IMG/VR virus record: IMGVR_UViG_2840842423_000001
Location: 64,001 to 128,000 of that record
Origin: a virus
Taxonomy: Duplodnaviria; Caudoviricetes
DNA: 64,000 nt
Direction: 5' to 3' (one strand)
Every line of letters starts with the position of its first letter. Position 1 is the stretch's first letter. Positions 9,039 to 55,977 of the stretch are shown one piece after another. The notes beneath the pieces are model-generated. The model ran no database searches and was not told where the DNA came from. It saw nothing but the letters and a program-made list of their open reading frames with translations. The position numbers and the translations under genes were made by a program.

Positions 9039-12000
9039 ATGAATAAAGAAATTAAAGAATTGATTAGCAAAGTTGAAAGTTTAGAGTGGACAGTGGACAA
9101 AGAAGGGGATAACGAATACAGATTGAGCAAGTACAGTCCAGCAGGGCAAGACTTTAGTATAGTAGTAGAAGGTGAAGAGGTCGAAGAGTTAATCGAAAGC
9201 ATTTATCAAGTTTATAATGACTTTGACACATCAGAAGAGACTTACCTATGGTTAGACAATACAGGGCATGGAACAAATGGAGCGCCATATCATATGAAGG
9301 ATTTACTGGAGGATATGGAAGCTTGTGAACAAATGATATCAGACTTGTATGATGAGTTGAATAAATAAAACAATAAATAAATAATATTATACTTGTAATA
9401 CTATCCTGTATATGGTATAATTAATTTAAGAGTTAAGAAGCAAGCAAAAGATCAAATAGGAGGAATTAAAATGATCATAGGGTATAACTTAGAGGGTAAT
9501 ATAGAGTGTTTAGAGTGTGTAAAGGGATTTATAAACGACACTTTCAACGGTAATGAGGATGATTTTTTAGACTATGTAGAAGTAAACGAGTGCGCAATAG
9601 ACATATCGGACTTGAAAGATAATGGAAATACTAAAGGATATGGGCATATTGAGTGTGTTTCTTGTAAGAAAACGATTAATTAAAACTATAAATTTATCTT
9701 GAAAGGGAGAATGTAAAATGAATAAGATCGAACAAAATAAACAAAATAAGGAAATTGTAAACGGGTATAAAGAAACCATAAAAGAGATTAAAAATAATCT
9801 GTACAATGTTACTTCTATTAAGCATAGACATTATTTAATTAATACTATAAAAGAAACAGACAACTATATAAAAAGAATGGAATACTTTGCAGTGCAGTAA
9901 AAACAACATTTTATTAAAATTTGAAAGGGTTGACTATGTATGTTGGCTATTTATGGAAAGTTAAAAAATGAAAAACGTTTCAGAATGTATAATTTGAAAG
10001 AAGATTGTTTTGTAGAAAGAAAAATTTTTGTGACACTATTCCATGAGAGTCAAAAAGACGAATTACAGGAAGACGTTGACTATATGAATAAGCATAATCC
10101 TAATTATATTTTTGAATTAAGAAAAGTGTAATTTGGTAAACTTTAATAATTCACGATAAAATCAATAATTCATGAAGGAGAATGTAGTATGGAACATATA
10201 AAAGTATTGGGTTATTTTAAAGAAAGTGAAGTGGTTTTTAATCCAGAAAATGAAAAGTTATTATATTTTGTAGCATATGAGAATAGCTACAATTATAGTC
10301 AAAGAGACCAATTGGAGGGCAAGAAGTGGGTGGAGGGTTTTAATGTTATGGATGGACATTTTCAATTAATGGATAGAAATTATCTTATCTCATGTAAGGA
10401 AATATCAAAATATGAATATCTAAAAGCTACAGAAGGATACGTGACACCAGAAGTATACTTGTAATATAATAAAATTAATGCTTTATGAGAGGAGAAAATA
10501 TAATGTATGTAAATTGGATTGATAAAGATGGTAGGCATTCAGTCAAATGTAGCGATAAGATAACAGCTAAAATTCTTTATAAACAAATAAAGGACTTCAA
10601 AGTAAAAGAAATTAGCAATGACGAATATGGATTCACAGGGTATAAAAATTCAAAATATAGGCTTTTAGCAGTATAGATAAAACCATTATTTCACATTAAA
10701 AGGAGAAGATGAAAATGAGATATATTATTGTAGATCAGTTTACAAATGATGATTATGTAAATATTTATGTTGCAGATGATAAGGAGAATGACTTTTTAGA
10801 AATAGAACAGGACAATGAACTTCCAGACGCTTACAAGCTAATAGAACAATTTAAAAAGGAGTACAACATTAATACTATTGAGTTTGTTCTATATGACAGT
10901 GGTCACGTAACACAGGATGGTAATAATACTGAAATATATAGAAGGTCAATAGAAGCTTAATTAAGATAAAACAAATATATTATTGGGAGTGAGCAAAGAT
11001 GGTTAAATTTATGAATACCATGGAAAGATGTTTAGATTGTGGGGGGAAAATTACAAGAAAATGCAATACCAATTAAAAGTGAAAACGGGCAGCATTTTTG
11101 TTCTAATTGGTGCAAAGATAATTGGGTGTCAGATACTAATTAAATTTAATCATTGAAAAGGGGTAATACAAAATGAAGTTCACAAGAGAAGAAATGTTAG
11201 ATGACTTTAAAGAGTTAGAAATGGACTTAGAAGGCAGTTTAAACAATATGAGTATTTACCTTAGTATGAACGACAAAGAACTAGAAAATACTCATAAAGA
11301 TATGTTAGATGCAAAGTACATGGAAGAGTATAATTAAACAATACCATAAAGGAGTGTGTAAAAATGGAACACATACAAGCATACAATGACAACGAATTAA
11401 TATTTGAAGGTGAAGTTGGTGAATTTTTAAAGCTGCAAAACGATAGTGATGGATTTTTAGAATACATTATCGAAAGTAGAACAGATGATATTATAGAATT
11501 TCCGGAAACTATAAACGGAGATTGGAAATTTATTATTAAGTAGCTTAACCATTAAGTAAACAATATTATATAAGGAGAATCGCAATGAATAGATTTGAGT
11601 ATGAAACAGATAATGGATGGGTCGTTGGTTATTTTGATATTTATCAAGCTAGGAACGGATTTATTTATTTAGTCATGGGCAACAATTTTACAAAACTCAC
11701 ATTGGGGCAGATAGAACAATTAAACATCAATTGTTACTCACTAAAAGATTATGATCACGACGATTTTGTAAAAGCATATAATTTACCATTTTGAATTAGA
11801 CCATAGAAAGGAGGTTGTCATATTGGATTTAAACAAATGGAAACAGGACATCCACGAACAATATGTTTTACTACAAACCAATTTAAAGAACATCAAACAC
11901 ACTTCATTATACACAAGTCTACAGAATACAATAAACAACAGAGATGAAACAAGCTGCACATTAAACGATTTTTTAGAGAATCATTTTCAATTATCCAATA

Positions 12001-15000
12001 TATACAATCAGTTCCACCAATTACAGTCAGAGCGTTTAGAATGGCTTAAGGAATACACTAATAGCAACAGTATAAAAGATAATGAATACTATAGACATAT
12101 GGCTTATAAGGTCATACATGAGGATATAGTATTATATAGTCTACAATTAATTATGAATGATCATACACCAGAGTTAACAGTACAGCAAAATAAATTGCAA
12201 CATACTTGATTATATTGTATAATGTCAGACAGATAGGAGAGTGTACAACACAGTGTATGATCAAAAGACATTAGGTTTATTAGGTGGAAAAGAACTACTG
12301 GAGCAAAAAATCAAAGCTAATAATTTTATGGGGGGTAAAATATTTACTCAACAATGGGTATTACTGGCATTCTCTTTTCACGGTTGCAAGCATACTAATT
12401 TTTTAACTATTTCAAAACGTGGAAAATATAATCTCATTGGAGAATACATTTTCATATTTTACAAAATTTCATTGTTCAGACATAAAAAGATAAAAACAAT
12501 TGAGGATGTAACAAATGATATTGTATTATCGACATTCGAGAAAGAAACAAAGTTAAAATTAGCGGATAAAGTGATCCAGTGAATAATATTGATTATCTAA
12601 TAAATAATTAATATTATATTGACATTTATATACTTTGTATGGTACAATGTAATTAAGAGTTAAAAGACACAAAGATAAATAATAAATTAGGAGTGAGTTA
12701 TTATGATTAAGAAGGTAGTGTTAACAAGCAGTGGAATTAAAAACAAACAGGTTATAGAACATGAAAAAATCAACGATTTTCAAACATATTTGCTAAAGGA
12801 TCAGTTAAACGATTTAGAAAATAATTATGATAAAGAAGAACAGGAGCAGTATAAAAGACATTTATTATTATTGGTGGAAGTAGACAAACATCTATTCACT
12901 GTATGTCATTTAGATCAAATTGAAATGATAAAACAGTATGATGGCAACCAAATATTAGAAATGCTTATCAGCAATTTCAATAAAGAGTTATCGGGTAATA
13001 AAGCTATCAATTGGGGAATGGCACAATATTTAAATAAAGAAGATGAATTTAATCAAGTAAAAGAAAATAAAAGAAAAGAAAATGAACGATACAAATTAGA
13101 ACAAAAACAAATACGAGAAGAAAAAGAAAAGCAACATCAGAAAGAACGTGATAGAGAGTTAGAAACATCTTTAAATGAGTTGTTAGCAGGAAATAAAATC
13201 GATAATTATGATTTTGTTGATTTATGTGACAAATACAGTATCAAATTACCTTTACGTACTAGAGGATGGGCTTTAAAGAGTTTGAACGAAATAGGCAAAG
13301 ATCAATATTCATACGGTGGCAATCCTTCTAAAGTGGTGTTCAATTATGTTGAAAAATTAATCAACGTGGCAATGACAGAACAAGCAATCTAATTGTAATA
13401 AATAATTAATAATATATTATAGGATAACTATTGCAATGTTATCCTATAAATGGTATAATGTAGCTAAGTTAAAATTAAATGGAGGTTTTACAAAATGGTA
13501 GATACTTTTAAAGTCAATCAATGTAGAAAACAGTCTGCAAAAGAAATCGGCACAGCACTCAATGAGTGTAACATGTTATTCAAATGTGATATTGAAGATC
13601 AAGCAAACAAGATTGTTTTTCATATTATAACAGATAGCGTGGATATTCAATACACAGAATTAGATAACAAAAGAATGGATAACTTTCTAAGTGTATTAAA
13701 AGATTTTGTCGTCAATAAAGAGGACATTGAAGAATTGAAAGAAGAATTGTTAGTAGTATAATTCAATAAATAAATGGAGGTTTTACAAATGGAAAAAGTA
13801 ATAATTAAAATCAAAACTGAAAATGCAGCGTTTGAAGAAGTTGGAGTAGGTAATGAATTAGCTAGAATATTAAAAGATATGGCAGATCAATTGGAAGATG
13901 CTTACAATTTTCCTAAAACATTAATGGATCTGAATGGTAATAAAGTTGGTACAGTGGAGTACGAATAAAATCACAGTTTTATCTGAAAATTTATGATACA
14001 ATTTAAAATAATATAAGGGATAGGGAGAGGTTTAAAAATGAAAAAGAAAGTTGTCGGTTTATTAATGGTAGGATTATTATTGGGAGGTACAGTCACTTAT
14101 GCAGCAACAAATTATTATGCAGATTTAATACTCAATCAAGAGGATCAAATGATGAATGAAATAAGCGAATACTATAATCAGAATTTTAAAGAAAGAGGAG
14201 AATTACAACATCGGGATATGGTGCATTACGCAACAATGGAGAGAGAATCTTTGATGGATAGAATGAAATCAAAAATAGATGAAAAAGTAGCAAGTGATGC
14301 AGATAATCGCAGAAAAGAACATGTTAAGCATATTGATAACGCAGTAACAGGACTTGAAGAAGAATTGTTGAATTATATTAATGAATTAGAATAGAGCAGG
14401 GTTTATACCTGCTATAAAGGTATATGAGCATATTCACCATGTATCCTTATAATAGGTATAAATAAACAACAATACAAGGAGATGATCTATAATGACAATA
14501 AATAAATAATATTATACTTTCGATAGTACAATAGATATGATACAATAAATTTACAGTAAGAAATCAATGAGGAGGTAATGATATGCTAACAATATTAGAT
14601 AGAGATATTGAGATAGTAGAAAACATATTAGGGGATCATAGTAGTTTAGAGGTGACACATTGTTATGATGACTCACGTTCAGTAGGAGACTTCAAAGAAG
14701 CCTTAGAAGAGGTTTTAAACAGTCTAACAGACAAAGAAGAATATATAGAAGAGTATAAAGAGGAAATTGCAGATCACCAACAGGATAAAAAGGAAATGTT
14801 AAAGCATATTAAACGACTTGAAAAGATGCTTAATAAGCGTGAAGTTAAATTTAAAAACTGGGAAGCTGTAGAAGATGATTTGAATTATTAGTACCATGGA
14901 TTGAAAATAACATATCATAATATATGGAGGTTATACAATGAGAAAGCAAACTAAAAAGCAATTGCAGGATTTTAACAATGAAGTCATTGAGATATTAGAA

Positions 15001-16293
15001 TTTTACGGTGCGAGCAGGGTCGAGAATCCTCATACTAGAATGATCACTTATATAATTGACAGTGAGAAAATTGGTGAGTTATCAATCAAACTGGAATATG
15101 AAACATCACGTATATATACAATATATACTAAGTTTGATGATCCAGAGAAAGCTGTTAAGTTTTTCAATATATCAGTACACAATGGCAAAATGAATAGTCA
15201 TGAATATAGTCCAGAACCATGTTTAACGTTTATTGATGAGTTATTGGATAACTACAATCAGATCAATGGAATTGATTCACATGCAGCTTATTTAGAGGTT
15301 AATAGCAATTAATATTAAATAGGAGGTAGTAAAAATGATTAAATTAAATGTTGGCAGCGATTATGAATTTACAGACACAGACGGAACAAAATATGAGGGA
15401 ACGCTATTTGAAAATATCAATGGTTGCTTAGGGTTTGATCTATTTGATGACAGTAGCGTAGAGAAGAGTATTGATGAAATTAAGGAAATCGAAGAAATAG
15501 CTGTATGAAACAGGAATTTTATAGTATGACTTATGATAGAATTGCAAACAAAAGGAGAGTATATTGAATGGATAAAAAGGATTTACTTATGACATTAAAA
15601 ATCGAAAGAGATTATGCTAAACGTCAAGCATTGCAGGAAATAGGTATTTTAAGAGGGATTTTAGATAAGGTAGAGCAGAGGGTTGTTGATGGTAGTATTA
15701 TAGCAGATGATGGGTTGCAAGGCAATGAGTGGCGTTTATATAAAGCATTATCGAACTTAGAACAAATGAATACTCATATAAAAAATATCAATGAATTAAA
15801 ATAGAAAATAGTATTAATTGGCAGTCTGAAATACGGCTGCCAATTAAGATAAAACTATAACAGGAGTGAATTATAATATGGGAACATTTAAAGTTATCTT
15901 TACCTATGAAAATGGTCTTACACATGTATTAACTTATAAAGATGTAATAAGAGACAAAGAGAAAATTTTACATGCAGCGTTAAAAGATAATGAACATGGT
16001 TATTCAGATATTCATTCCATACAGATTATCGAATATGACTTTTAAATTACAAAAGGGTTGTATAGGTATAAAAAGGTCATTTAAGGTTGCAAAAGGAGTT
16101 GTAACAATTGATAAAAATTTATATTCACTGGCAACATAGACAGGATCAATATATAGTTATGGCTGTTGATGGTGAAACAATATTATATTCAGATATAGTA
16201 ATGAGCGAGGTTTTAGAACTCACACTATCCATGCTAAAAGAATCTTTTTCTAGCACTCATAAAGAAATTAAAGAATACAGGAGATATATTTAA
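9039..16293 (+). CDS. Array of small hypothetical genes (9039-9368, 9471-9683, 9718-9900, 9940-10131, 10189-10464, ~10500-10676, 10709-10960, 11585-11794, 11823-12209, 12241-12582, 12703-13392, 13495-13761, 13789-13968, 14583-14891, 14938-15312, 15568-15804, 16108-16293 and others <60 aa)
   Basis: Co-oriented ORFs, most with own RBS; many junctions carry the TAAAA-N6-TTTTA site. Confidence 0.7.
10999..11143 (+). pseudogene. Small CxxC/FCxxxC protein frameshifted in a G6 run (or sequencing error)
   Basis: Removing one G at 11041-11046 gives MVKFMNTMERCLDCGGKLQENAIPIKSENGQHFCSNWCKDNWVSDTN. Confidence 0.55.
14038..14394 (+). CDS. Secreted or membrane-anchored helical protein
   Basis: MKKK + hydrophobic stretch + TYA/YAA signal-peptide-like N-terminus. 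Confidence 0.7.
   Translation: MKKKVVGLLMVGLLLGGTVTYAATNYYADLILNQEDQMMNEISEYYNQNFKERGELQHRDMVHYATMERESLMDRMKSKIDEKVASDADNRRKEHVKHIDNAVTGLEEELLNYINELE
15815..15848 (+). terminator. Stem-loop, probable terminator or processing site
   Basis: TTAATTGGCAGTC...GGCTGCCAATTAA inverted repeat after the 15568-15804 ORF; no long U tract. Confidence 0.45.
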
Positions 16294-21012: not shown

Positions 21013-21080
21013 AATTGGTAAAACTTACCTTTACATTAATTAGATAACAGTATATTATAAAATTAGAGGAGTGTTAAATT

Positions 21081-22421
21081 GTGAAACAAGATAAAACTCG
21101 TCAAGAATTAGAAGAAAATTTGATACAACCGACTTTATCAGTGAAAAGAAAACGAAAGATTGTACAAGAGATTAAAGATAGCTTATTCAATAATCACAAA
21201 ATAATTGGTGGAAATACACAATCTTGGATCAATGATCCAGAAACTGAATTACCATTGTTAGATTGGAGAATACTATACTTATTTGCCAAACAAATCCATT
21301 CTAAAATTAATCAATCTAATATTAACCCGGATCATTTTTACACAGAGGTAGAAGCTAAGAAGGCACAACAGTATACCGGAAACTTAACAATAATGGAAGA
21401 TGTATCACTTCCTATGGTATTCAATGACGTTACAGAATTAAGATATGGAACGTATTTAACTCATATTAGCGCAAAACTACTAGCTCAAATGAGTTCAACA
21501 TTGTTAAATTATAATTTTGACATACAAAGAGAAGCGACCAAAATAACAAGGAACAATGAGACAATCAAAGAAGCTACTTTAGTTTTGAAAAACGTATTAG
21601 AAATTAAAAGTCATTTAAAACAAGATTCATTAGAATCAACAAATATTGTATTTAATGCAGCAATAGGTACAGCAGACGATGGAGATGAATTAACTTACAA
21701 TCCAGAAACTAAACAACTACAGATTAACAAGGGCACAATTATTGACATTGTAGATGGATATCACAGGTGCAAAGGAAGTGAGTTAGCTCTAAACGAAAAT
21801 CCAGATATCAATTTTAAATTTTCATTAATTATATTAAACTATACAGATGACCGAGCTGCCAATTATCAAGGGCAGTTAGCAGAAGCAACACCAATGTCTA
21901 AACCAAAGAAGAAACAACTGTCATCTAAAAGACATTCTGATGCTATTGTAAGAGAACTAATGACACAATCCGAACTAAAGGACAAAGTGGCTGTTGCCCG
22001 TGTTCCAAGTGCACGTAATAAAGAATTAGTAACTTACGATGTCTTATCTGATACCATTGATGAACAATTTAAATTGGATAGAATGATTGATGTTCATAAA
22101 GTAACTAATTATCTAAAAACTTATTTTAATATCCTGTTAGGTGAATATGCAGAACAATTCATAGAGAACCCTATTGAGTGGAAAAAGAAATCGGTCATGG
22201 TTGAGAATAACATGTTTATAGGCTATATTGTTTTAGCAAGAAGAATGTATGAACTAGGAATAGATGCAGTAAACGTTATTGATTATATAGATAGTATTGA
22301 TTTTGATAAAAATAACGAGTTGTGGCAAGATATAGGATTCTTAAATGAAGATAAAAATTTAAATAAAACTATGTCAGCGAGAAATGCTATAGAAAACTAC
22401 TTTAAACAATTGGAATTGTAA
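21081..22421 (+). CDS. yopQ: DndB/ParB-like (DGxHR) protein, SPbeta YopQ (SroE)-like
   Basis: IVDGYHR motif, YNFDIQRE; 446 aa between two integrase-fold genes. Confidence 0.75.
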   Translation: MKQDKTRQELEENLIQPTLSVKRKRKIVQEIKDSLFNNHKIIGGNTQSWINDPETELPLLDWRILYLFAKQIHSKINQSNINPDHFYTEVEAKKAQQYTGNLTIMEDVSLPMVFNDVTELRYGTYLTHISAKLLAQMSSTLLNYNFDIQREATKITRNNETIKEATLVLKNVLEIKSHLKQDSLESTNIVFNAAIGTADDGDELTYNPETKQLQINKGTIIDIVDGYHRCKGSELALNENPDINFKFSLIILNYTDDRAANYQGQLAEATPMSKPKKKQLSSKRHSDAIVRELMTQSELKDKVAVARVPSARNKELVTYDVLSDTIDEQFKLDRMIDVHKVTNYLKTYFNILLGEYAEQFIENPIEWKKKSVMVENNMFIGYIVLARRMYELGIDAVNVIDYIDSIDFDKNNELWQDIGFLNEDKNLNKTMSARNAIENYFKQLEL

Positions 22422-22440
22422 CCAAAAGGAGTGTAAGATA

Positions 22441-23409
22441 ATGGAATTGTACAATCAAAGCACTAAGATGGAGTATTTAGACACACTAGCCAGCCCAGAC
22501 GTACAAACATTACTAAGATCGGTTTTTGAGAAATCTAAGAATACAGAGATTCTTTATGACAAAGATTTACATTCATTTAGCTTGGGTCAAATTGAAGAAG
22601 TAATAAGAAACATCAATCCTGCAACATTAAACAGCGTCTCTAACACTAAGAGTAGAATTAACACTTATCTAATATGGGCAATTAACAATGGAAGAAGAGA
22701 GAACAACATTAATCCATTAGCAGGAACGACTAAAGAATGGGAAAGAAAATTTATAGATAATGTTTCACAAAGATATTTATCAGAAACAGACATGTTTGAT
22801 CTTACAGAAATGTTATTAAATGCTCAAGATCAAGCCTTGATTCAATGTATATTTGAAGGAATATCTGGACAAGCAATGTCAGAATTAATCTCTATGAACT
22901 ATCACAGAATTAATTGGAATGACAATGAAGTCACTGTTAAAGATGTTAAAACCAATAACTTCAGAACAGTCAAAGTAAGTAATAGATGTATAAAATTTAT
23001 TGAGAATGCATATAGACAACAGGTATTTACCGCAGAAGATACAGAAAATGAAAAGCAATTAGCTGAATTTGAAGGGTCAGTTTTTAAAAACACGGTATGG
23101 AAAAACACAAGAAATCATAAGGTTAGCAGAGGAAACTTAGCGAAAAGATTGTATATAATAAAAGATAAATATGAAATGGATTCTTTAACTGTAAATACAA
23201 TCAGTGAATCTGGAAGAATTAAAATGGCTGCCGATTTATATAGAGAACGAGGAAAACTTGGCAAACAAGAGTTTACTGAAATAGGAGACAGATTTAACAT
23301 TAATAAAATGACTGTAAATGGTTACTCTTATTACGATACAGCAAAAATGAAAAATTATATTGATAGTGAAAATTTAAAAGAGATGTATAATTTAGATGTA
23401 GAGTTTTAA
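22441..23409 (+). CDS. yopR: Integrase-fold master repressor, SPbeta YopR (MrpR/SroF)-like
   Basis: LLNAQDQALIQCIFEGISG..SELI integrase-like box lacking the catalytic Arg; 322 aa; synteny. Confidence 0.75.
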   Translation: MELYNQSTKMEYLDTLASPDVQTLLRSVFEKSKNTEILYDKDLHSFSLGQIEEVIRNINPATLNSVSNTKSRINTYLIWAINNGRRENNINPLAGTTKEWERKFIDNVSQRYLSETDMFDLTEMLLNAQDQALIQCIFEGISGQAMSELISMNYHRINWNDNEVTVKDVKTNNFRTVKVSNRCIKFIENAYRQQVFTAEDTENEKQLAEFEGSVFKNTVWKNTRNHKVSRGNLAKRLYIIKDKYEMDSLTVNTISESGRIKMAADLYRERGKLGKQEFTEIGDRFNINKMTVNGYSYYDTAKMKNYIDSENLKEMYNLDVEF

Positions 23410-24164: not shown

Positions 24165-27100
24165 AATGAATAATGATTTAGAGCATCCAGACATAACTAA
24201 AATACGTAAAGATGGATATTTACATATGGAGAGACAAACAGATAATACAGTTGAGGAAAATGAAGAAGACGAGTGAAAGGAATATGGATATGAAATTGGA
24301 TATATTAGAGGATGATGAGTTGTTTAGACTTGCTGCACATCAAGGTGGATATAACGAATATATAGATAAAGAATGGAAGAGCAGATACAGATTAAGTTTT
24401 CCGTATCAATTAGTGGCAGATGAACAAAAGGTATATAATGCTTTATTGGATCAGAAGATTGATTACGTTGACTGTGATATAAAAATTGTGGAGCAATCTA
24501 AAATAATAAAAGGAGTGTGCTAAAATGAATATTGAATTGATTAATTATCTTGAGCAACGCATAGAACAGTCTAACAATCTTAAATTTAGCAAGGAAACAC
24601 ATAAGGCAGACCAGTTGTTTTTCAATGGTCAAGAACAGGCATTTAAAGAGATTGTAGACTATCTACAAGGAAAATACTTCATTAATGTCGAAGGAAAAAC
24701 AGATACATTCTAATTATGATACGGTATAAATTATTAATTTATTGGGAGGAATTAAAATGAAAATAAGTAGGCGAGACGTTTTTAAGATGTTAGACAGAGA
24801 TTGTGTCGATTCGCAATCGGCTGAATTAATCAAAGAATACATTAACAGAATTCTAAAACAAGTACCAAATAGCAATGTAAAATAAAGCTGTTACTTGAAG
24901 GAGAAGTGAAGATGAAGATAAAAACATTTGACAATGGATTAGTTGTTAAGCATCGTAAATCTGCAATTATATTTGAAAATGCAAATGGCAAAAAAGAAAA
25001 AGAAGAACATTTTTCTTATCACTTTTCAGATGAAGATTTTAAAAGGTTTATGGAGTATATTAAAGAAGCTGCCAATGAATCATGGGCTAATATAACACCT
25101 AAAGAAGCAAATAGCATGGGAACTGATTATGATGAATACTATGACCGTAGATATGATGATAATGGGTATTTAACTATCGGAGACTATGGCATCAAAATAA
25201 GAGCACCATATTGGTCGACTGATACTTTATACCAGTTCAATAAGCCTAAAATACAATCATTTATTTACGACTTACAAAAGGCTAATTAAAACTATTGATT
25301 TATTCAGATAGGAGGTAGGGGAATGGAGTTATTAAAGTGTGCAAAATGCGATACTGAATTGTCAGACAAGATGGAGATAGAATATAGTCGTTGGGTCACA
25401 GAATACTTTTGCAATCCAGACTGTGCTATGTCGTATTACTTTGAATATATGGGCAGTGTTCCGTTTGATGTACACGACTTACCAGAAAGCCTTAAACATA
25501 ATAAGGTGAAAGCCGTCAATGGAAAACTATATGATATCAGTTAAAACAATTATTTTATTGAGAGAAGGAGCTGAAAGATGATGAGCGAATTAAAACTAAA
25601 AACATCTATGGAAGTTGAGATTGATAAAGAAGTTCCAAATAACGAAATTCATGTGTATGACAAAAATGGAGAATTTGTTGGTAAAATTAAAAACATTAGA
25701 GAAGAAAATTCTAAATGAAAACTATAATTTAAGGAGATGAACAAATGATAAGAAAAGAGAAATCATGCGTATATTTTCTGATTAAAAATGGTACAGAAAT
25801 CAACACAGAAGTAATACATCTAAATGATGCTTCGGAATCAGATGTTATATTGAAAGCCAAAATGAAACTAACTGTAGAACTAGGAATAAATATTGACTTC
25901 ATAGCAGATAAAGTTGGCAGAAACAAAGTACACGATGGTGATTGGACGTTTGTTGATTTTGTGGAATATATAGATTAAATATTATAATATGCTGAGGTGA
26001 AAAATGATAAACCATAAATTAATCGAACAGGATATATTGGAAGGTGGCTATCCTGAGAACATTAAAGATCAAGTTGTTTCTTTAGTTAAACGGATTGAAG
26101 AATTAGAAGGAGAAAATAGATATCTGAAAAATAATAGTGATAATAGCATTGAATTTGAAACTTATAGAAAGTGTGTAAGAGGAGACATTTAACAAATCTA
26201 AACTATATATGGGAGTGATATTATGACAAACTGCAAGATATGTGGCAATCATATGGGTATGTATTTTCAATATGCAGGTAGAGTTATAGATGTTGATTGT
26301 GAGCGTTTCGGAATATATTGTAGACGGTGTGCAATGGTTGATACAGAAAAATTACAGAGCAAGCGCTTTGTTGAGTATTATAAGGATAATGCAATTTATA
26401 TGAAAGAAGGAAATTATTATCCATATTGGGAGTGTCCATATCATTTTAAAAATATTGAAGATGTAAGAGCAAGAATAGATGATTCACATGCAGCCATCGT
26501 TGATATGGAAAACCTTAAATTTGTAAACAGTTTGAAATAAATTCCAATACTTACTTAAAAGGAGAGACATGTGATGGAAGTAACATTAGAACAATTAACA
26601 ACAATTAATCCAAAGGACTTAAAAGCACCTTATTATAGAATGATGCTTAAATCAGCAATTAAACACGTAGAAGAACAAGGTGGCAAAGCATGAGTACATC
26701 CTCATGTACTGGCTGACTTTGGTATTAAATCCAATTAAATCTAAATTTATTAAGGAGGAGCTAAAATGAAAAAAGAGGTTTCTGGAAAAGCTTATACAAC
26801 TGTAATTATGGAAATTGAAATAGACGATAGTGAGTTAGAGGGTTTAGCTCAAGAGGAAATTAATGAACTGTTTGTTGAGAAAGCCTATGATAGCTTTGGT
26901 GGCATTGACAGCTTTCTTGGAAATGGAGGAGCAGATAAGCTGATAGGTGTTACTGGCATCAATGAAAGTATCTATGGTGATGGTGAAGTGGATTTTGATG
27001 AAGTAGAGAATGTTGAAGATTGAATAAAAGAATACTTTCATTGTAATTTAACAGCGACTTGGAAATATCACGGTGATTTTAGATCAAATAGAGATTTTAA

Positions 27101-36743: not shown

Positions 36744-36822
36744 TTTAGTAATACCAAAGAGCTAAAAATATTATATTCAGATAAATGAATTGACTTTGCG
36801 GATATATGTGGTAAGATAAGAA

Positions 36823-36878
36823 TAGTAGAGGTTGCGCTTTAAAAATCTATTCTCCTAGATTCGGCTTCCTCTACTATA
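36823..36878 (+). ncRNA. Candidate small RNA with anti-SD-like loop
   Basis: Promoter TTGACT(36790)-16-TG-TAAGAT; outer stem TAGTAGAGG/CCTCTACTA; inner hairpin AATCTA-TTCTCC-TAGATT. Confidence 0.4.
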
Positions 36879-36967
36879 ACATAAATAAGAATAAAAGAAA
36901 GTTTCAAAAAGCATTGACAATAGATAATTAATACTATATTATATCAATAAGGAGGAAATACACCAAA

Positions 36968-38356: not shown

Positions 38357-41300
38357 TATGAAACAAATGAAATGTACTAAAGACGTTGTTGTACAAGGTA
38401 GGACGGTGTTTGTTAAAGAGAAGGTTTATGATTTTGAAGCAGTGAAAACGAATGGTGTATCGGCTTATGAGGTAAATGGTGAAGGCGGAGTAGGTGTTAT
38501 TTCTAAAGATGATAAAATCTTGAAGAAGAATTTTGTTAAAGTGAAGAAGAAGTTGTTTAGAAAGTAAGTTGACAATAGCTAATAAATATTATATAATATA
38601 TACAGATAAATAAAACCAATCCACAGCACACAACAGAAAAGAGGTGAACATATGAAAATTTGGAGTTCTAACAACAAAAATCACAAACAAGACTTCACTG
38701 AACTACTTCGAGACGTATTAACAAACAAAGATACAGACAACTCTGACACGCCTCAGAAGTGTGACTATGTAACAGTAGTCGATAACGACACAGGTGCAGA
38801 AACAAGTGGCAGAATTGTCGACTACACCAAAGACAGTATTGTATTAAAAACAATCACAGAGTTTGATGCGCATAAGGTACATTTCAAATAACTTTACCAA
38901 GAGGTGAAAGAGGATTATTAATTTGTACACTGTATATTATCAAAGACCAGATGGACTAGTTTGCAGCATAGAAACAATAGGTAGATATGAAAATGAAGTG
39001 TTAGCACAGTTTGAAAGGTTTGACGACTATAATGTAATTTACATAATCGAGACTAATAAACTCATCTAATAAAGCTACGATTTTATTAGATAAAAAATAT
39101 TATACTGGAAGGAAGTTATACAATGGATGTTTACATAGTGCTTTATGAACACCACAAAGATGGGATAGTAGATGTGTTAGACGTTTACTCAGATGAAGAA
39201 AGAGCGAATAGACGAGTTAGATTTGAGAGAAGTGTGATTGAGTCCAATCCTGAAACATATTTTAGAAATGAGTGTTGGTATCAGGGAAGAGAGATTATAC
39301 CACCAGTACAATTAAACACGAATGCGATTATCAAGGAGTGAAGTTATGAGCACATGGATACCCATAACGTTATTTTATGCATTATTGTCTTTTGTGAACT
39401 TAATCTTAGCTGACGGTCAGGACAACAAATATTGGAAAATCGCACATGTAGTAGTTGCATTGTTTTGTCTAGGAATGTTTATAAGAAATGTTATTGTGTA
39501 TATTTGACAAAAATGCGACATAGAAAGGATGGAATTATGAGTAAATACAAATTAGCTTTTTCAATTGATATGCATGATTCAGATGGAGACACTTATGAGG
39601 AAGGAATCTTATTACACCTTGGAAATGGAGTTATTCTACATTTCAATAACTTAAAAGAATATGACAATTTTATTGATAGTATGCAAGGTATGCGGGATGA
39701 AATTAGAGAAAATCTGTAACGTTGTATTCCGACTTAAAGTAGACAAGAAAGGAGCGATCAATATTTGTAAACATGGTACACATACATACGTAAATATAAT
39801 CAATAAAGGGCAAAACAGAAGTAGTGTTCCTGTTGATGCTTGTATAGCCGAAGAGATCAGAGAACTTAATGACGCAGGAATTATAACATTAGGCTGTTGT
39901 TGTGGACATGGTAGGGCTGGACAACTTATTGAATGGGAGAATGGCTTCGGGAAGTGGAAAGGTTATTACGATCCACCTCATGCATTAATAAGAGCTGAGA
40001 GTGTTGTATTAGCTAAAGAAATGGGATATCAGCCCTATCCATATTATTATGCAGATGGTGTACATAATGATGTTTGGCAAATGCACTTAAAGACTGGATG
40101 CATCACAGAAGAAGATGTGAAAGAGTGGCATAAAACTGACAAAGGGGTTTATAACATTGAATCAAGAAATAATTATTAAACGTGAACAATATTATACTGA
40201 GACTGAGGAGAAGAATATTTCGAAATTACAAATGGAATTTAGGCATATGCATTTCAGTACTTACGATGCTTATAGAAACTATTTGCATGTTCGAGTAGGA
40301 GAGTATGACGATTTTAATTTTTATCTTGAAATGTCACCCCGTGAAGCTGAGAAGTTATTCTTGAAGTTAGCAGAAAAAGCAGGCAATGTAGAAAGAGGTT
40401 TTTGATTTGACGAGACAGGACGTAACAATATTGAAATACGACTATCAACTAATAGGTGGAAAATTAAAGGTTAAAGTGACAGATGTTGAAATGTGGGATA
40501 TTATAGCAATCCGAAGTGATGATGGAAAAGAAGATATTTTTCCATTGGGATATTTTCAGAAACATTTTAAAAAGATTGATAAGGAGTGAAAATGAATGTC
40601 AATAGGAACATTAATGTTAAATCTAATTACCATAATTATCTTATATTTACTTATCGCATTCTCATGGCAAGGTGCGGAGAGGTTAATTTACGGTAAAATC
40701 ACATCAAGAATTATAGATGATGTAGTTGCTATAATTCTAGCTGTATCAATATTCACCAATTTAAATTAAGACAAATAATAAATAGCCAAAAGGAGGAAAC
40801 CAAAATGACAATGAAAGTATACAAAATGAACAATATAGAAAACGTTGCAGCTAACTCAGCAGAGGAAGCCAAGCAATTCTATGCCGAGCTTTGCGGATAC
40901 ACATATGATGAAGTGCAAGAGGATTTTGAAGGTGAAGTTGATCTGCAAACTAAAATGTTAGTAGATGTGAAAGATTTACCAGATGATGTATTCATTAGAG
41001 TAAACAACTTAGAGTTTAAATATGGAACAGCTTGGGCATATATGACGTTCCAATGGGTATTAGAAAATGATCTATATGATGATAGTGAACCATTCGTAAT
41101 TAGCTCAACGGAGCACTAGAAGGAGATAACAATGAGTAAACAATATTATGTTTCTATAGTACGGGATCATGATGGCGGATGGAGATTAATTATGGATGGA
41201 TTGTGTATACATACATTCTATAGAAAGAGTAATGTTAAGGCATTCGTTGTAGAGATGATTGATACGAATAAGAATGTTGAGTTTGTTATTGAGGCTGATG

Positions 41301-43593: not shown

Positions 43594-46500
43594 ATGAATA
43601 AAAAGAACAAAAGGATTCTCAAAGAAGCATTCATATATTTCGGAGTTTTCGTTGGTTTAATTGCATTAGTTATGGGAATCTTAGCGTTAGCGGCATTAGA
43701 AAGTATGGTTCTATTTGTGATAGTGTCATTGATCGTTATTTTTATCTTATGCTATGTAATGGCTTGGTTGGGAAATAATTATTGAAGATTAAAATATAAA
43801 CAATACTATAATAAAAGGTCAATTTTAATTAAAGGAGGGTGAGTACAGATGTTTATTAAAAATGAAATAGAACTACACCAGAATAGCGTTGATCATATAG
43901 AAGAAACGTTCGCAATGTATACAGAGATATATCAAATAAGCGAACAAATAAAGAATCCAATTATGCATATGTATCCGATCAAAGATACTTATGATCCTGA
44001 TGGTGGACTCAGTGGATACATTGACGCTTTATTTTTCAAGATGAATGTGTACGACACAGAGAATATGACAGTTTACAAAGACGAGAATCTTCATGATGGG
44101 ATTCTACCTTTTAAAGAGTTAAATGTGTCTCAGATTAAAATCTTTAAAGACTTGAGTACTATGATTGTATTAAGAGGTGAGTATGCTATTTCAACCCATC
44201 ATACAGATGTTAATATTTACATTAAGGAATAATTTATCCAATGCTTGACTATAACTAAATAATATTATATACTGTATTAATATACGGAATTGATTTACAA
44301 ATAATATAAAAGGAGGAATAAATTAAATGGATAAAACAATTAAAAGAATCATAATCACATTAGCAACAATTTTACTACTATCGGGTGTATTTGCAGTAGG
44401 AGCATACGCAAGTGCAACATGGCTATCGTTTGAGGGTGATGAGAAGGTAAGTAACACAGAAAGTAATATTGATGAGATTATGGATATTCTACGTCAGGTG
44501 AATGAGGATAAATTGTCTGCTGAGGAAGCTTTGGAGGAATTAGAGGATATGAATCCTCCGGGATTAGTTGAGCAGATTAAAGAACTAGAAGAACAGATTG
44601 AAGTGTTGAAAGATGAGAAACAAGTGTTAGTAGATGAGAATGAAGCTTTAAATGAGTATGTAGAACATTTGGAAACAGAGTTGACTAGAGCAAATGAGAA
44701 AGTTGATGGATTGAGTGGTAGGTCGGAAGATGCTGTGGAAGAAGCTAGAGAGATTGTTGGAGAGTAATTGATTGTGAAATTAGTAAATTAGTAGCTGACA
44801 ATAAAATAATAATGTTATATAATTAAGTCAGATGAGAAAAGGAGGTGCTTAAATGGAATACACTACACGTCCAAAATCGTATGAGCAATCTATCAAAGAG
44901 AAAGTCGAAATATTCTTCAAGGTGTTGACAGGTGGTATTTATATTGTGGAGAAGGATCGGCATGATGTATTTGGCGAAGGAGCTTTTGTAACAACTGAGG
45001 AGTTGGTAAAAGTGTTAAATACATCAGCAATGACAATTGGAATTTATACTGGAAGAGGAATTAAGGTGGTAACCAATAATGAAGATGAGTTGAATTCGAT
45101 TGCGGGAAATGAGAGTGATATGTATTTGGAAAGAAGTCGAGGGATTGATTACATGTAAGATGGAGGAGGCAATAAGGTGATCTCAGAGAAGATTAATGAG
45201 ATGGTGAACGAAGAAGTTGGAAGAGTTATTGGCGATAAAATAGCAGAATTAGACGAAGCGAGAAAACATTTATGCGATGTAGAAGAGAAAACTCGTTATT
45301 TAGACAATGATAACTATGAATTAAATCAGAAAGTAAGATCATTGAGCAAAGCAGAGGATCTCATCGCTAAATTTACACCTTTGGTAAACAAAGACAACTT
45401 TGAGGATTTTCTGGATAGTTTAAATTTAGAAGGTACAGGAATTGTAATAGATGGAATGGATAGTGGAAAGATTCCTGTATGGTTTCAAGCAGTGGTGAAA
45501 TATTATGATCATAAAGAATTGGTTATTAGTTTAATGAATTTGTTTAATATTGACTATCCTAACTGGGCTGCAAATTTCAAGTTACCATATGATTACAATG
45601 AAGAAGAATTGGATTTATTCTTTAGGAATATTAGCTATGCTAGTGTGACTAATGGTGCAGATTTTCAACATAATACAGGTTTCTTTTATGAAAAACTAAA
45701 GAGAAACAATGGTGATGTGAAGCTGTTGTTGACAAAATCTGATTACTTTAATATTCCATGGAATTTGTTATTGCAGAATAAATTGTTAGTTACAGGTGAA
45801 TATTTCAATAAGATTCTAAATGAGTTGAAAGAGAATAGCATGGGTTACATGAATTCATTTAACTTTTTCTACATACAAAAGTATCAAGAGTTAAGCAGTT
45901 ATCAAGTGTCGCAAATGTTGGATTTACTACCTGAGAAAAGGTTAATGGATTGTCATAGAGCATTTATTAATCAAAATGTAGATATATTCAAAATTAAACC
46001 TGAGTTGGTAAATAGATTCTTGAATAAGATTAGTGATAATCAATTCTCTACATTTTATTATTTAAATTATCCAGTGGAGATACAGAAGGATTATGTTAAA
46101 GATTACACTGAAAGATATGGATATAGAGATAAATTTGAAATGGTGAAGAAGATGGATATTAGTAAAGAGGATAAGATAAAATTGCTTAGTGAGATTGCTG
46201 AGATGGAGTTGGGAGAATCAGAGGATTGATAGAAAATACGATATAATGGAAAGGGGATGGAGACAATGGTAGAAATAATGGGGCAAAATTTAGATAATGC
46301 ATTTGAACAATTAGATGTTAATGCAGACAGGATGGTTGAAACAGAAGAAACTAAATTGCAAGTTTGGCAAATGTCTGAATTAGAGTTTGATAGGTTAGCG
46401 GCTATTCCCGATGAAGATTGGCATGAAGATTTCGGATGGTGGCGTAATGGCAGATGTATTTATGAAGGACGTGCAACTACTGAATACATTGTCAATGGTG

Positions 46501-48880
46501 AAAAAATGCTGGGATATGGATCTGATATGGAGTTATTCGGGAATGAATTTATAACCTATTCTCAATGGTTTAATGAAGCGATGAATCTATCCACAGATAC
46601 GAATCTCGTTATATTCGCAAAGAGTTTAGCAAGTGATAATGGAATGAGTTTATCTGAGTTTATTTCCAAATATGAGAAGTAATATATTGCGGTTCAAATA
46701 AAAGATGGCTTTTATATGAATTAATCAGAGAGGATGATAACAATGAGTAGTGCAGAATTGGAAATTGCAAGAGAACAAAGAGCATGGGAGAAATATTGGA
46801 AAAGTTATCGAAGTAGTTTGTTTTGTGAAAACTGTGAAAAGAAAATACCTGAATCGTTTTTCTCTCTTTCATATTGTTCTCAATTGTGTAGAGATAAATC
46901 ATGAACCGATGCCCTAACGAAATTGGAACATACAAAGGCTGTATATACCTTGAGTTCCCTAAACACATGTTGAAAGAATACGATGGATTCTATGAAACCG
47001 TATTTGGATGTGATGTTGATTACTGTATTGCTGGTGAGATTCAGGATTTGTGGGATCAAGGTGTTACAACATATGGCTCTTGTTGTGGTCATGGGATCAA
47101 TGAAGGAATGATAAATGTGGATGAGAAAGATGTATCTAAGATGTATAAACTGGGTTATAAATTGTTTCCATCTCAAAAAGGGATGTATCCATATACTTTT
47201 ATTCCGAAGTCTCGACATAAGTAAGGTGGTGAATACGCAGTGTTAAAAATATTTGAAACCAAAAATAAGAAAGAACATGATAATGTGATGGAACATCTAA
47301 ATAATTGGGCATCTCAAATGTATAGTAGTGAATATGATAGATGTATGAAAGTAGCTAAATCACGCAATGAAAATGTTGTTGCTATTTTTGATGATTGGTG
47401 GCATGGTAAGCGTGTGTATACTGATGAGTATAGATTAAAATATTCTAAAGATGATTATGATAATGCAAGTGGTATTATATTAGAAACTGTTTCTAATGGA
47501 TTTGGGTAACAAATGGAGATGATTATAGATGGATGTAGAATGGAAGATGAATGGTGAGATTGTGATTAAGCTTAGAGAAGATGATTTGTTGGATGAAGAT
47601 AAGAGACAGAAGATAGCTGAGTTTATATCGGAGCAGTTAGGGTTTCAGGTATGCGATGTTAAACAAACAGTAGAAAGGAGAATAAATATGGGAGATTGGC
47701 TAACTACTGGGCAAATGATTGATAAGTTAAAGGTTGGTGAGAGAGCAGATTCTGTTAAAAAGTTTACAGGTTATAATGTCACAAAAACAAATCGAGGAAT
47801 AGTTTTTGGTGATGGTGAGCCTTTATTTATGAATAGTGTGGCATTAGATATTAAGTGGAAAATCACTCCAGTGTATGTGACTTTTGAAGAGGCGATGAAA
47901 GCATTGAAAGAAGGTAAAGAAAAAGTTTTCTTTCATGATGGAGAATGGAAAGCACACGTAGTTTATGATGAGTGGATTGAAAATAGTTATGTCAGTGGAT
48001 ATACATTTGAACAGCTATTAACAGGAAATTGGACTGTTGAAGACTGAATGAATTTCAATTTACACATGGAAGGTGATAGTCAATCATAGACTTAATAGAT
48101 GCAGTTACATATGCACTGAAAGAAACAAAATGGAGTTTGCCAAATATAAATAAAAATACAGAGGAGAGAGTGAATATGAGTAAAATTACACCTACGAAAG
48201 AAAAGTATGAGGAAGCGTGGGAGATTGTGCAGCGATACGAGGATAGACAAAAGGATTTAGCAAAGTTGAACAAGGATTTAGGATTCTGTTTGAAACAATT
48301 TGTTCAGTTTAAATTTGATGTGAATGAGGGCAAAGGCGAGGTTACGTTTAGTGGATTGACTAAAAGTGGAGAATTGAAACTGACTAAGAGTGCAGTGAGA
48401 CATGGAGATAAGTTTGAAGATGTTATTGGGAAATTGATTTGTGTCAAACGTGCGATTGGAGAAGATGTAGAATATTTAGAAAGATATATCGAAGGCGAAC
48501 TGATTATAGGAGTGTTACATACTGATATAGTCAATGGATTGGCTTTAAGAAATCCATTGGGGAATGGAAAAACTTATTACAAAGCATAAAAATAATTAAA
48601 AGAAATTTTAAATCTGGTTGACTATAGGTAAATAATATTATATAATGTATATAGAGTAGTTGGTTCTATTAATTTTAAGGTGGTGAGATAAATGACAAAT
48701 AACGCAGAGAATGCCATTAACATTATTAAAGGTGCTACAGTATATGGTGCTTTAAATTCTTCAGAGATTGTTACTAGAGAGGATGGGAGTACAACTTATA
48801 CTCAGAAGAATGAACATGGACATACACAAGTTGACGTATCATTTGATGGGATTGAGATCAGTATGAAGAAGTATCAATAA
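43594..48880 (+). CDS. Hypothetical genes (43594-43785 membrane, 43849-44232, 44853-45158, 45177-46229, 46257-46682, 46743-46904 Zn-finger, 47240-47509, 47529-48047, ~48176-48589, 48692-48880)
   Basis: Co-oriented ORFs with RBS behind class II promoters. Confidence 0.68.
44327..44767 (+). CDS. Secreted acidic coiled-coil protein
   Basis: Signal peptide ending AYA; long heptad-rich acidic region; own class II promoter. Confidence 0.7.
   Translation: MDKTIKRIIITLATILLLSGVFAVGAYASATWLSFEGDEKVSNTESNIDEIMDILRQVNEDKLSAEEALEELEDMNPPGLVEQIKELEEQIEVLKDEKQVLVDENEALNEYVEHLETELTRANEKVDGLSGRSEDAVEEAREIVGE
46901..47224 (+). CDS. Second TYW3-like-motif protein
   Basis: VDYCIAGEIQDLWDQGVTTYGSCCGHG. Confidence 0.6.
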   Translation: MNRCPNEIGTYKGCIYLEFPKHMLKEYDGFYETVFGCDVDYCIAGEIQDLWDQGVTTYGSCCGHGINEGMINVDEKDVSKMYKLGYKLFPSQKGMYPYTFIPKSRHK

Positions 48881-51439: not shown

Positions 51440-51478
51440 TACATATGAATAAACAATAATATAACAGGGGATTTTTGA

Positions 51479-54485: not shown

Positions 54486-54520
54486 TTGTATAATACTATA
54501 AATTAAAGGAGGCACACAAA

Positions 54521-55116: not shown

Positions 55117-55143
55117 ATTATAGTTTAAACAGGAGGATTTCAA

Positions 55144-55500: not shown

Positions 55501-55505
55501 GGAGT

Positions 55506-55977
55506 GTGAATAATTTGGTAAACGAAAAAACATGGAAAGACTTTAGAGATTCAGGGTTACTGTGGTTTATCAATCAAACATTACATTTGTTCGGTTGGGC
55601 TTTAGTTGCAGAAATAGAAGAAGATGAGATTAAAAGAGTTTATCCAGCTAGAGTTAAGTTTAGAGGGTTTGATGAAGATACGAATAGCAATGGTTATGTT
55701 AAGTTATCAGAATATCTCAAGAATAATATTGATGATTTACATAAAGAATCTAAAGAATAAATTACAATAAAAGTTAAATTTTATTGGAAATTAAAAGGAG
55801 AATACACAAATGAATATTTGGTTTTTAGTTTTGATCGGATTATTTTTATTAAGCTTAGGGATAACATTGGCTAAACATGGTGAACAAAAACGAGAGGTAC
55901 ACAATTTTTGGGTGGTATTGATTAGTGGTTTAATACAGGTTTGGCTAATCTATATGGCAGTTTCAGTAGGGTTTTAA
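55506..55977 (+). CDS. Conserved phage protein (W.DFRDSGLLWFINQ.LH.FGWA; 55506-55760) and small two-TM protein (55810-55977)
   Basis: ORFs with RBS. Confidence 0.65.

Follow-up and report, generated by a model that had tools for sequence, protein, structure and literature searches.

A conserved palindromic element at gene junctions of SPbeta-like Bacillaceae phages as a putative boundary of exchangeable gene cassettes

Background

Large temperate phages such as SPbeta carry fast-turnover small accessory genes, anti-defence genes included, in arrays, and the clean replacement of unrelated genes is an old question of phage mosaicism. This question is raised by a 64,000-nucleotide stretch of viral DNA (Duplodnaviria; Caudoviricetes; positions 64,001 to 128,000 of IMG/VR record IMGVR_UViG_2840842423_000001), referred to below as the window, in which a short palindrome, WTAAAA-N6-TTTTAW, recurs at the junctions of small genes. 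The original prediction, made from the letters of the window, listed about 27 such 18-mers and considered the small genes between them to be integron-like cassettes, possibly moved by a YopP-like recombinase encoded between the two arrays. Is the palindrome a genuine element, does it delimit exchangeable genes, and what might read it?

Results and discussion

A palindrome confined to intergenic DNA of the window

All 27 18-mers that had been listed were retrieved, in position as well as in sequence (Table 1). The exact motif occurred nine times in the window, compared with 0.58 ± 0.77 copies expected from 100 dinucleotide shuffles (maximum 3; none of the 100 reached 9), and a scan of spacers from 0 to 20 nt gave nine copies at 6 nt and 0-3 at every other length. 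Similarly, 116 intergenic segments (10,602 nt; 27% GC) contained 15 sites that matched ATAAAA-N6-TTTTAT with at most one mismatch, as opposed to 0-3 at other spacers and to 0.9 ± 1.0 (maximum 5) in 200 shuffles of the same intergenic DNA. Coding DNA (52,062 nt) displayed no excess, with three sites at a spacer of 6 nt and 0-6 at other spacers. The motif is confined to intergenic DNA, with a sharp preference for N6, so that both the enrichment over shuffled AT-rich controls and the 6-nt spacer preference of the original prediction were confirmed. In addition, TAAAA-N6-TTTTA ranked first in the window (10 copies) among all 5-mer inverted repeats with spacers of 0-12 nt.

The individual sites were graded by their mismatches against the 10-position core TAAAA/TTTTA. 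Ten of the 27 had none and 12 had one, bringing those with at most one mismatch to 22, whereas two sites (10156 and 25715) had two and three sites (14901, 26537 and 28334) had three. Intergenic DNA contained an excess in the class without mismatches (9 sites, the average for the other spacers being 0.5) and in that with one mismatch (17 versus 5.3), but not in that with two (45 versus 53.4). These five sites are unsupported, as there is no excess at two or more core mismatches, and roughly one third of the one-mismatch sites could be due to chance. About 20 real sites are hence present in the window, instead of the approximately 27 proposed.

The sites were spread across 46 kb, most of them with the next start codon 13-55 nt downstream. 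At 12 sites, positions 2-4 of the left arm ended an open frame 40 or more codons long. Eleven of these stops belonged to the frame of a called gene, in agreement with the 'at least 11' cases counted before, and the one at 55767 ended an alternative frame. Promoter-like (sigma-A) sites were not in excess in the arrays (52 versus 46.2 ± 7.4 and 28 versus 31.3 ± 5.8) and intrinsic terminators were absent from both, indicating that the arrays are polycistronic.

Occurrence of the motif in other phages

The same element was found in SPbeta, which harboured 13 exact and 38 one-mismatch sites with a 6-nt spacer, versus 3-10 at other spacers. These sites occurred in the early as well as the late region, the late operon included, in both coding orientations, and between convergent as well as divergent genes. 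In the unbiased inverted-repeat scan, TAAAA-N6-TTTTA again ranked first in SPbeta (34 copies) and in an IMG/VR relative (L013; six copies in 22 kb). Besides SPbeta, strong enrichment was found in ten large Bacillaceae phage records. Whole-record counts of the motif, relative to control counts of the backwards pattern, amounted to 37/3 in an IMG/VR provirus (G001), 33/1 in FADO, 27/3 in PK-3, 25/1 in Thrax1, 37/1 in Goe13, 30/2 in phi3T, 35/0 in SPR, 23/3 in Tsamsa and 30/7 in Geobacillus E3; a Staphylococcus SPbeta-like phage had 17/8. Other phages, in place of the host genome, served as background controls, and no excess was found in SPO1 (0/0), SPP1 (0/2) or Staphylococcus phage K (29% GC; 4/4), indicating that the motif is neither a host-wide signal of Bacillus phages nor a by-product of AT-richness. 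The element is particular to SPbeta-like phages and to large Bacillaceae siphophages (120-170 kb) related to them. As its arms are kept across phages without remaining DNA similarity, something reads them.

These counts also settle the explanation by chance, according to which AT-rich intergenic DNA, with its TAA stop codons and T-rich leaders, yields the palindrome through its composition. The low GC content of the window (27-35%) and the five listed sites at background level are in its favour. It is refuted by counts 15- to 18-fold higher than in shuffled intergenic DNA, by the spacer of 6 nt alone standing out and by the three control phages.

Breakpoints of homology and spacer addresses

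Close relatives of the window phage were scarce: a search with its MrpR-like protein retrieved only its own contig among genome contigs and nothing among viral contigs, and a search with its ligase retrieved one distant provirus. Therefore, gene gain, loss and replacement were examined in the SPbeta clade, over the 18-kb early region of nine phages (SPbeta, phi3T, Goe11, Goe13, SPR, SPbetaL2, L4, L6 and L8), and between FADO and PK-3. Among 599 ends of high-scoring segment pairs (HSPs) in the nine phages, 106 fell within 14 nt of a site centre, compared with 9.3 for random positions. Near sites, 62 of 89 homology starts coincided with motif positions 0-2 and 32 of 101 homology ends with positions 15-19, nine more ending at position 6. 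In SPbeta, all ten junctions with the motif had breakpoints, as opposed to 13 of the 28 without it (Fisher P=0.0024), and tightly coupled genes without an intervening site travelled together. The breakpoints that the original prediction expected at the sites in related phages were thus borne out, and the sites are, by these comparisons, boundaries of exchangeable cassettes, as had been proposed.

The spacers behaved differently from the genes around them. Each position had a conserved spacer, and the order of the spacers was collinear across all nine phages: TGTAAG, (CTGAAT), GATGCA, GTAAAA, (TTGAAG), AGACTG, ..., GATAGT, TATTTA, (CAGAGA), ACGATA, GTAATT, TGATAA. The contents of the slots varied, with five clusters in five phages for TGTAAG..GATGCA, four in six for AGACTG..GATAGT and two in five for GATGCA..GTAAAA. 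A single 18-mer, ATAAAAGATGCATTTTAA, was joined to four different flanks on its left and to five on its right. Out of 247 pairs of sites with the same spacer, both flanks differed in 81, only the left one in 70 and only the right one in 30, and at least 30 distinct left/right combinations occurred at about ten slots in the nine phages. The flanking genes vary in reticulate combinations, while each N6 spacer, conserved and in collinear order, amounts to an 'address'. FADO and PK-3 likewise had the same spacer order at differing distances, with HSP ends at positions 0 and 18. This does not fit the analogy with Tn916 in the original prediction, in which heterologous coupling sequences are tolerated, since the spacers of the SPbeta clade are conserved per slot and exchange takes place between sites with the same spacer.

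Two cases illustrate such slots. First, phi3T and SPbeta had a block of 3,213 bp in common, from yopW to yoqD, that was 99.97% identical, versus about 95% elsewhere. This block (83687-86899 in SPbeta; 33687-36899 in comparison record L003) extended from the first base of the SPbeta site at 83687 to a point inside that at 86885, which suggests a recent block transfer between two motif sites. Second, the anti-Gabija genes Gad1 (SPbetaL4; L008, 12579-14401) and Gad2 (SPbetaL6; L009, 11630-12899) were alternative fillings of the single slot CAGAGA..ACGATA, the stop codon of Gad2 lying inside the left arm of the downstream site. Both genes have been reported 'at the same locus' (10.1101/2023.05.01.538930).

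Two array stretches of the window, and only two, had nucleotide homologues in the phage collection. The stretch 27083-27530 was 75-78% identical to eight Bacillus phage records, among which FADO, PK-3, SPbetaL2, BUCT082, PJN02 and 2S-4, with homology that began at the first base of site 27083 and stopped within the left arm of site 27525. The homologue of gene 27124-27528 in FADO and PK-3 was also located between two sites, and nothing outside these sites aligned. The stretch 10189-10470 was 67% identical to vB_BanS-Thrax1, the homology stopping at a motif site in both phages.

A few further observations concern the spacers. At 14486 in phi3T (L010), the spacer was TTATCA, the exact reverse complement of the TGATAA present in the eight other phages, as if the site had been flipped. 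The window spacers TCACAG (13965) and GAATAC (27024) were identical to SPbeta spacers at 120075 and 128076, next to unrelated neighbour genes; these two shared spacers, versus 0.16 expected (P about 0.01), were judged too weak as a basis for conclusions. Similarly, the IMG/VR provirus, FADO and PK-3 contained the spacer TCGCTC, of which GAGCGA at 29088 is the reverse complement. Such shared spacers may hint at addresses common across genera. Duplicate spacers within one genome were not found, which is uninformative, as few are expected by chance.

Two half-sites on duplex DNA or an RNA hairpin

In SPbeta, conservation extended symmetrically beyond the 18-mer, to TYTRN-ATAAAA-N6-TTTTAT-NYARA, which corresponds to 11+6+11 bp. 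The flank positions showed palindromic base preferences without covariation beyond the marginals, and no internal pairing was found in the spacer. RNA folding of ten window sites gave minimum free energies (MFEs) of 0 to -2.2 kcal/mol for eight, no better than shuffled sequences. As palindromic preferences occur without covariation and RNA folding is weak in eight of ten sites, the element is most simply read as a pair of half-sites on duplex DNA, each recognised independently.

Alternatively, the palindrome could act in RNA, as a weak AU hairpin that closes each cistron and serves to process or stabilise the transcript or to couple translation. The constant position after a stop codon and shortly upstream of the next start would suit such an element, as would the polycistronic arrays devoid of promoter excess and intrinsic terminators, and two of the ten sites did fold well (z = -4.2 and -4.6). 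Yet, a search of the element against Rfam returned no family, the SPbeta sites between convergent genes and in both coding orientations are at odds with a cistron-end signal, and neither the slot-specific spacers nor the breakpoints at the edges would be explained. Together with the shuffle-like folding and the missing covariation in flanks and spacer, this makes an RNA element very unlikely.

A YopP-like recombinase as candidate reader

The window genes at 19966-23409 repeat the SPbeta order yopP-yopQ-yopR. The first of them encodes a YopP-like tyrosine recombinase with the residues R174, K200/K203, H258, K261 (at the position of the second Arg), H284 and Y293, hence the set R-K-H-K-H-Y. The orphan tyrosine recombinases encoded by this gene and by yopP and yomM of SPbeta have H-x-x-K with the Tyr kept, whereas other members of the YopP family have Arg. 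A sequence search (phmmer) of the YopP-like protein against the PDB gave no match, and a fold search was used instead. Its AlphaFold model (pLDDT 81.8) matched best the XerH-difH complexes 5JJV/5JK0 (E 1.8e-10), further matches being XerA, lambda Int and Cre. The protein had 43 database relatives, and YopP homologues occurred in 96 phage records, all of 115-170 kb. Eight of the ten YopP-positive records tested also contained the motif. The gene yopP is a conserved gene of the SPbeta clade that is expressed in lysogens and is described as lacking a known function (10.1101/2021.11.22.469490, PMC8612738). With its predicted fold, the YopP-like protein is the leading candidate for a catalyst acting at the sites.

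The YopP-family gene was also the first open reading frame (ORF) of the genome in the Lactococcus 949 group. Phages of this group are virulent, which argues for a role other than integration.

Comparison with known systems

Several known systems resemble the element in part. A first one is Xer/dif, of which the core sites consist of 11-bp half-sites and a 6-bp central region, the arms of difH and difSL ending in AAAA beside it (PMC5357621). The motif likewise has inverted arms around a 6-bp centre, as in XerH/difH and XerS/difSL, inner arms that end in AAAA/TTTT and, in SPbeta, a 28-bp extent equal to that of dif. Its N6 is strict in the window, SPbeta and their relatives, within the 6-8 bp of recombinase core sites, and the predicted fold of the candidate enzyme is of the Xer type, matching best XerH-difH. 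The homology breakpoints at motif positions 0-2, 6 and 15-19 may indirectly reflect binding and strand exchange at the borders between arms and centre. In contrast with the single dif site, a phage genome with the motif carries tens of sites at gene junctions, every one with a spacer of its own; the second catalytic Arg of the YopP-like protein is Lys; and the motif, known from sequence, gives no sign of a role in dimer resolution.

A second comparison is with the heterospecific lox sites of recombinase-mediated cassette exchange, in which the identity of the spacer sets the partner sites. The spacer of the motif would define partner sites in the same way.

Thirdly, the hyperplastic regions of T4-type phages contain PeSL (promoter-early stem-loop) elements, short conserved sequences between genes, on either side of small non-essential genes; their recombination leads to insertion, deletion and replacement of ORFs and can yield mini-circles (PMC2839356, PMC4122927). 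Exchange at the motif would, by comparative inference, also give insertion or deletion and replacement of small ORFs. However, a PeSL consists of a strong sigma-70 early promoter and a terminator stem-loop, whereas the motif lacks a promoter or terminator signature; PeSLs recombine by homology between copies, whereas copies of the motif have only 10-12 positions in common; and the spacers of the motif are slot-specific and collinear between phages.

Fourthly, the integron to which the original prediction likened the arrays would imply promoterless cassettes, each with its own attC-like site, and an IntI-like enzyme. The window does contain small promoterless units of a ribosome-binding site (RBS) and an ORF, located between inverted repeats that resemble recombination sites, as well as a tyrosine recombinase gene nearby. 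However, attC is a long imperfect inverted repeat that acts as a folded single strand, whereas the motif is a duplex-type palindrome of 18-28 bp without stable folding. An integron site travels with its cassette, whereas the spacer of the motif keeps its genomic slot while the cassettes change. Further, intI adjoins attI and the cassette promoter (Pc) at a single array, whereas the window recombinase gene lies between two arrays without an attI/Pc arrangement, and the sites occur genome-wide, late operons included. The integron-like label was abandoned on these grounds, a true integron-like system being highly improbable.

Lastly, the SPBRE element is the operator of MrpR/YopR (SroF), 15-26 bp long, non-palindromic and bound by a monomer (PMC10516654, 10.1101/2025.11.27.690993). 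Like the motif, SPBRE recurs between genes in this phage family, and its reader is a recombinase-fold protein of the same operon. It was recovered in SPbeta as TAGACAAATACAAATAATATGTATATAAT, inside about ten promoters, and an identity with the motif was rejected, as SPBRE is a non-palindromic sequence of early promoters whereas the motif is a different sequence in different places. An identity as promoter for YonO was rejected as well, as YonO uses a single start site for the late genes (PMC5467207).

By analogy, the closest counterparts of the motif in action are heterospecific recombination sites, or else the boundary elements of modular phage evolution. No description of the element was found in the literature searched on SPbeta, SPBRE, YonO promoters, YopP, the Sro proteins, mosaicism and cassettes or hotspots, the 1999 genome paper (Lazarevic et al.) and supplements being outside this scope.

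Site-specific exchange or an operator

The explanation favoured here, held tentatively and at slightly less than an even chance, is that of exchange between sites with the same address by an Xer-type recombinase that recognises the 18-mer as duplex DNA, the YopP-like protein being the leading candidate. The 18-mer, located where a gene or small group of genes ends on its 3' side, is the point at which phages exchange non-homologous cassettes. A conserved phage protein would read the constant arms as two inverted half-sites, and the 6-bp spacer would act as a slot-specific address. Recombination between same-address sites of co-resident phages or prophages would replace cassettes and keep gene order; as the same spacers occur in the same order within a phage clade, this exchange would not scramble it. 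The likely catalyst would be a phage-encoded Xer-type tyrosine recombinase, possibly the YopP-like one, acting at the borders between arms and spacer. The observations cover the motif, its spacing and family specificity, the breakpoints at its edges, the collinear addresses and the fold and residues of the recombinase; from these we infer that a protein binds the site, that strands are exchanged there and that this enzyme may be responsible.

Several results weigh against this explanation. The arms in the window are conserved over only about 6-7 bp each, not 11. Breakpoints also occur at 13 of the 28 motif-less SPbeta junctions, and of the 159 short, isolated islands of exact identity, only 32 include the motif. 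Within continuous alignments, five of 36 identity change-points fall at sites, versus 2.4% expected (P=0.0016), but 31 of the 36 lie elsewhere, and most exchange in the clade is ordinary homologous recombination. Laboratory hybrids of phi3Ts and SPbeta have all their crossovers in kilobase-long shared tracts and none at sites, and are therefore uninformative on site use. The cassette 27124-27528 has different spacers in the window and in the Bacillus phages; hence, cassettes can change slot over long distances and exchange is not strictly between sites with the same address. As to the enzyme, Lys replaces the second catalytic Arg (HxxR) in YomM and in the YopP proteins of the window and SPbeta. 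The YopP-positive Brevibacillus phage Sundance had no sites (control 4) and Lactococcus phage 949 had seven versus a control of three, neither with a standout palindrome, and the link with YopP is one of co-occurrence among related phages that have many genes in common.

Much of this would equally suit an operator or insulator for a phage regulator, with exchange at the sites as a by-product. This regulator could be the YopQ/SroE ParB/DndB-like protein, an Xre-type protein from its operon, or YopP without catalytic activity, for which the Lys at the second catalytic Arg would be in keeping. The sites, as the only conserved 18-28 bp in variable DNA, would offer a short-homology anchor for RecA or a Sak4-type annealase, and selection would retain only those recombinants still carrying a site. 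Indeed, homologous recombination is pervasive in the clade, with hybrids crossing in long tracts and most change-points off sites; same-address exchange requires no more than 18-28 bp of identity; and a homologue of the Sak4-like annealase YorG, 53% identical, is present in the window. Deep conservation of the arms demands a reader, not necessarily a recombinase. MrpR/SroF sets a precedent within this very operon for a recombinase fold turned pure DNA binder, and SroE is described as a second repressor, without a known target (PMC10516654, 10.1101/2025.11.27.690993). In contrast, an 18-bp tract is short for homologous exchange to be efficient, and nevertheless the nine phages have at least 30 left/right combinations. 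The breakpoints lie exactly at the edges of the 18-mer, and 81 of the 247 pairs are unrelated on both flanks; an operator has no need of a conserved slot-specific spacer; and the 11+6+11 layout with AAAA/TTTT inner arms matches recombinase core sites. Moreover, SPbeta sites in convergent and divergent intergenic regions and in the late operon follow no simple regulatory logic. An operator is thus a serious alternative, possible although somewhat doubtful.

Same-address exchange by a recombinase could also be taken further, to a natural multiplexed exchange system with dozens of heterospecific sites per genome, a reader of the YopP family and spacer addresses shared population-wide. Gad1 and Gad2 in the CAGAGA..ACGATA slot would be examples of it. 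This extended form is conceivable, but we consider it rather less than probable.

Genomic context of the window

The MrpR-like gene of the window had a 100% identity match in Virgibacillus profundi P3-H5 (286-kb contig). Only 10 of 132 crudely called window proteins had tblastn matches in SPbeta, all of them encoded by core genes and with 28-59% amino acid identity. These few matches of low identity, combined with the yopP-yopQ-yopR gene order, indicate that the window is a distant SPbeta-like prophage of V. profundi. All ORFs of sizeable length are on the + strand. Accessory and core genes include those for a PIG-L family deacetylase (16303-17073), an LPD29-domain protein (2997-4862; 621 aa) and a SNF2-type helicase (34179-36743; 854 aa), the last not being a YonO-type RNA polymerase. 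A tRNA gene (30698-30771; Rfam RF00005, 71.9 bits) is located between the second array and the gene for an NAD-dependent DNA ligase.

Other repeated sequences were encountered as well. The window contains a repeated element, ATAAAT-AATTAA-TATTAT-ACTTG...(TG)GTATAAT, at 4908, 7820, 9373, 12600 and 14498 (weaker at 2109 and 17078), which has the appearance of strong sigma-A-type promoters with a conserved upstream box and is probably the analogue of the SPBRE operators bound by MrpR/SroF. Isolated conserved islands of other kinds in SPbeta relatives included SOS-box-like sequences of the AGAACACTTGTTC type. An A-rich island, TAAAAATAAAAT, had seven copies in SPbeta, on the + strand only and several of them in coding DNA, and none in the window, and was dropped.

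Table 1. Palindromic sites and associated genes of the window (positions counted from its first base; mismatches against the core TAAAA/TTTTA)
Feature	Position	Strand	Remarks
Junction site TTAAAA-CTATAA-ATTTAT	9680..9697		1 core mismatch; left arm = stop of ORF 9471-9683
Junction site GTAAAA-ACAACA-TTTTAT	9897..9914		Core exact; left arm = stop of ORF 9718-9900
Weak site ATAAAA-TCAATA-ATTCAT	10156..10173		2 core mismatches, class without excess; upstream of cassette 10189-10464
Junction site ATAAAA-TTAATG-CTTTAT	10469..10486		1 core mismatch; end of Thrax1 homology, site in Thrax1 too
Junction site ATAAAA-CCATTA-TTTCAC	10677..10694		1 core mismatch
Junction site ATAAAA-CAAATA-TATTAT	10966..10983		1 core mismatch
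Junction site ATAAAA-TCACAG-TTTTAT	13965..13982		Exact; left arm = stop of ORF 13774-13968
Listed site TTGAAA-ATAACA-TATCAT	14901..14918		3 core mismatches; unsupported
Junction site ATGAAA-CAGGAA-TTTTAT	15505..15522		1 core mismatch; left arm = TGA stop of ORF 15335-15508
Junction site GTAAAA-TAAAGC-TGTTAC	24877..24894		1 core mismatch; 3 over 12 positions
Junction site TTAAAA-CTATTG-ATTTAT	25286..25303		1 core mismatch; left arm = stop of ORF 24906-25289
Junction site TTAAAA-CAATTA-TTTTAT	25541..25558		Core exact; left arm = stop of ORF 25323-25544
Weak site ATGAAA-ACTATA-ATTTAA	25715..25732		2 core mismatches; left arm = TGA stop of ORF 25578-25718
Listed site ATAAAT-TCCAAT-ACTTAC	26537..26554		3 core mismatches; unsupported
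Junction site ATAAAA-GAATAC-TTTCAT	27024..27041		1 core mismatch
Junction site ATCAAA-TAGAGA-TTTTAA	27083..27100		1 core mismatch; left end of Bacillus-phage homology block
Junction site TTAAAA-CATGCA-TTATAA	27525..27542		1 core mismatch; right end of homology block; stop of ORF 27124-27528
Junction site ATAAAA-TCCACA-TTTTAA	27847..27864		Core exact
Listed site TTGAAA-TAACAG-ACTTAT	28334..28351		3 core mismatches; unsupported
Junction site TTAAAA-TAATCA-TTTTAA	28923..28940		Core exact
Junction site ATAAAA-GAGCGA-ATTTAT	29088..29105		1 core mismatch; left arm = stop of ORF 28945-29091
Junction site ATAAAA-GGCTCG-TTTTAT	29941..29958		Exact; left arm = stop of ORF 29666-29944
Junction site ATAAAG-CTACGA-TTTTAT	39069..39086		1 core mismatch
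Junction site ATAAAA-GGTCAA-TTTTAA	43811..43828		Core exact
Additional intergenic site ATAAAA-TAATAA-TGTTAT	44801..44818		1 mismatch; missing from the original list
Junction site ATAAAA-GATGGC-TTTTAT	46698..46715		Exact
Junction site ATAAAA-CACATA-TTTTAA	53634..53651		Core exact
Junction site ATAAAA-GTTAAA-TTTTAT	55767..55784		Exact
Single-gene cassette, 134 aa, without Pfam family	27124..27528	+	Nucleotide homologues in Bacillus phages
Single-gene cassette, 91 aa	10189..10464	+	Nucleotide homologue in phage vB_BanS-Thrax1
YopP-like tyrosine recombinase, 348 aa	19966..21012	+	PF00589, 2e-12; candidate site reader
YopQ (SroE)-like DndB/ParB-type protein	21081..22421	+	phrog_5732, 1.5e-99; alternative candidate site binder
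MrpR/YopR (SroF)-like recombinase-fold repressor	22441..23409	+	PF22822 1.4e-18, PF22823 3.5e-14; context only

Conclusions

A family-wide element marks, to the base, the points at which genes of these phages are replaced, and its variable core behaves as a positional address. The question of clean gene replacement thereby becomes directly testable in a tractable model, namely SPbeta or phi3T in Bacillus subtilis, and the conserved orphan recombinase YopP gains a testable role. For the mining of counter-defence genes, the element provides a practical rule to delimit accessory-gene slots. If the sites are enzymatic, they would constitute a set of natural orthogonal recombination sites.

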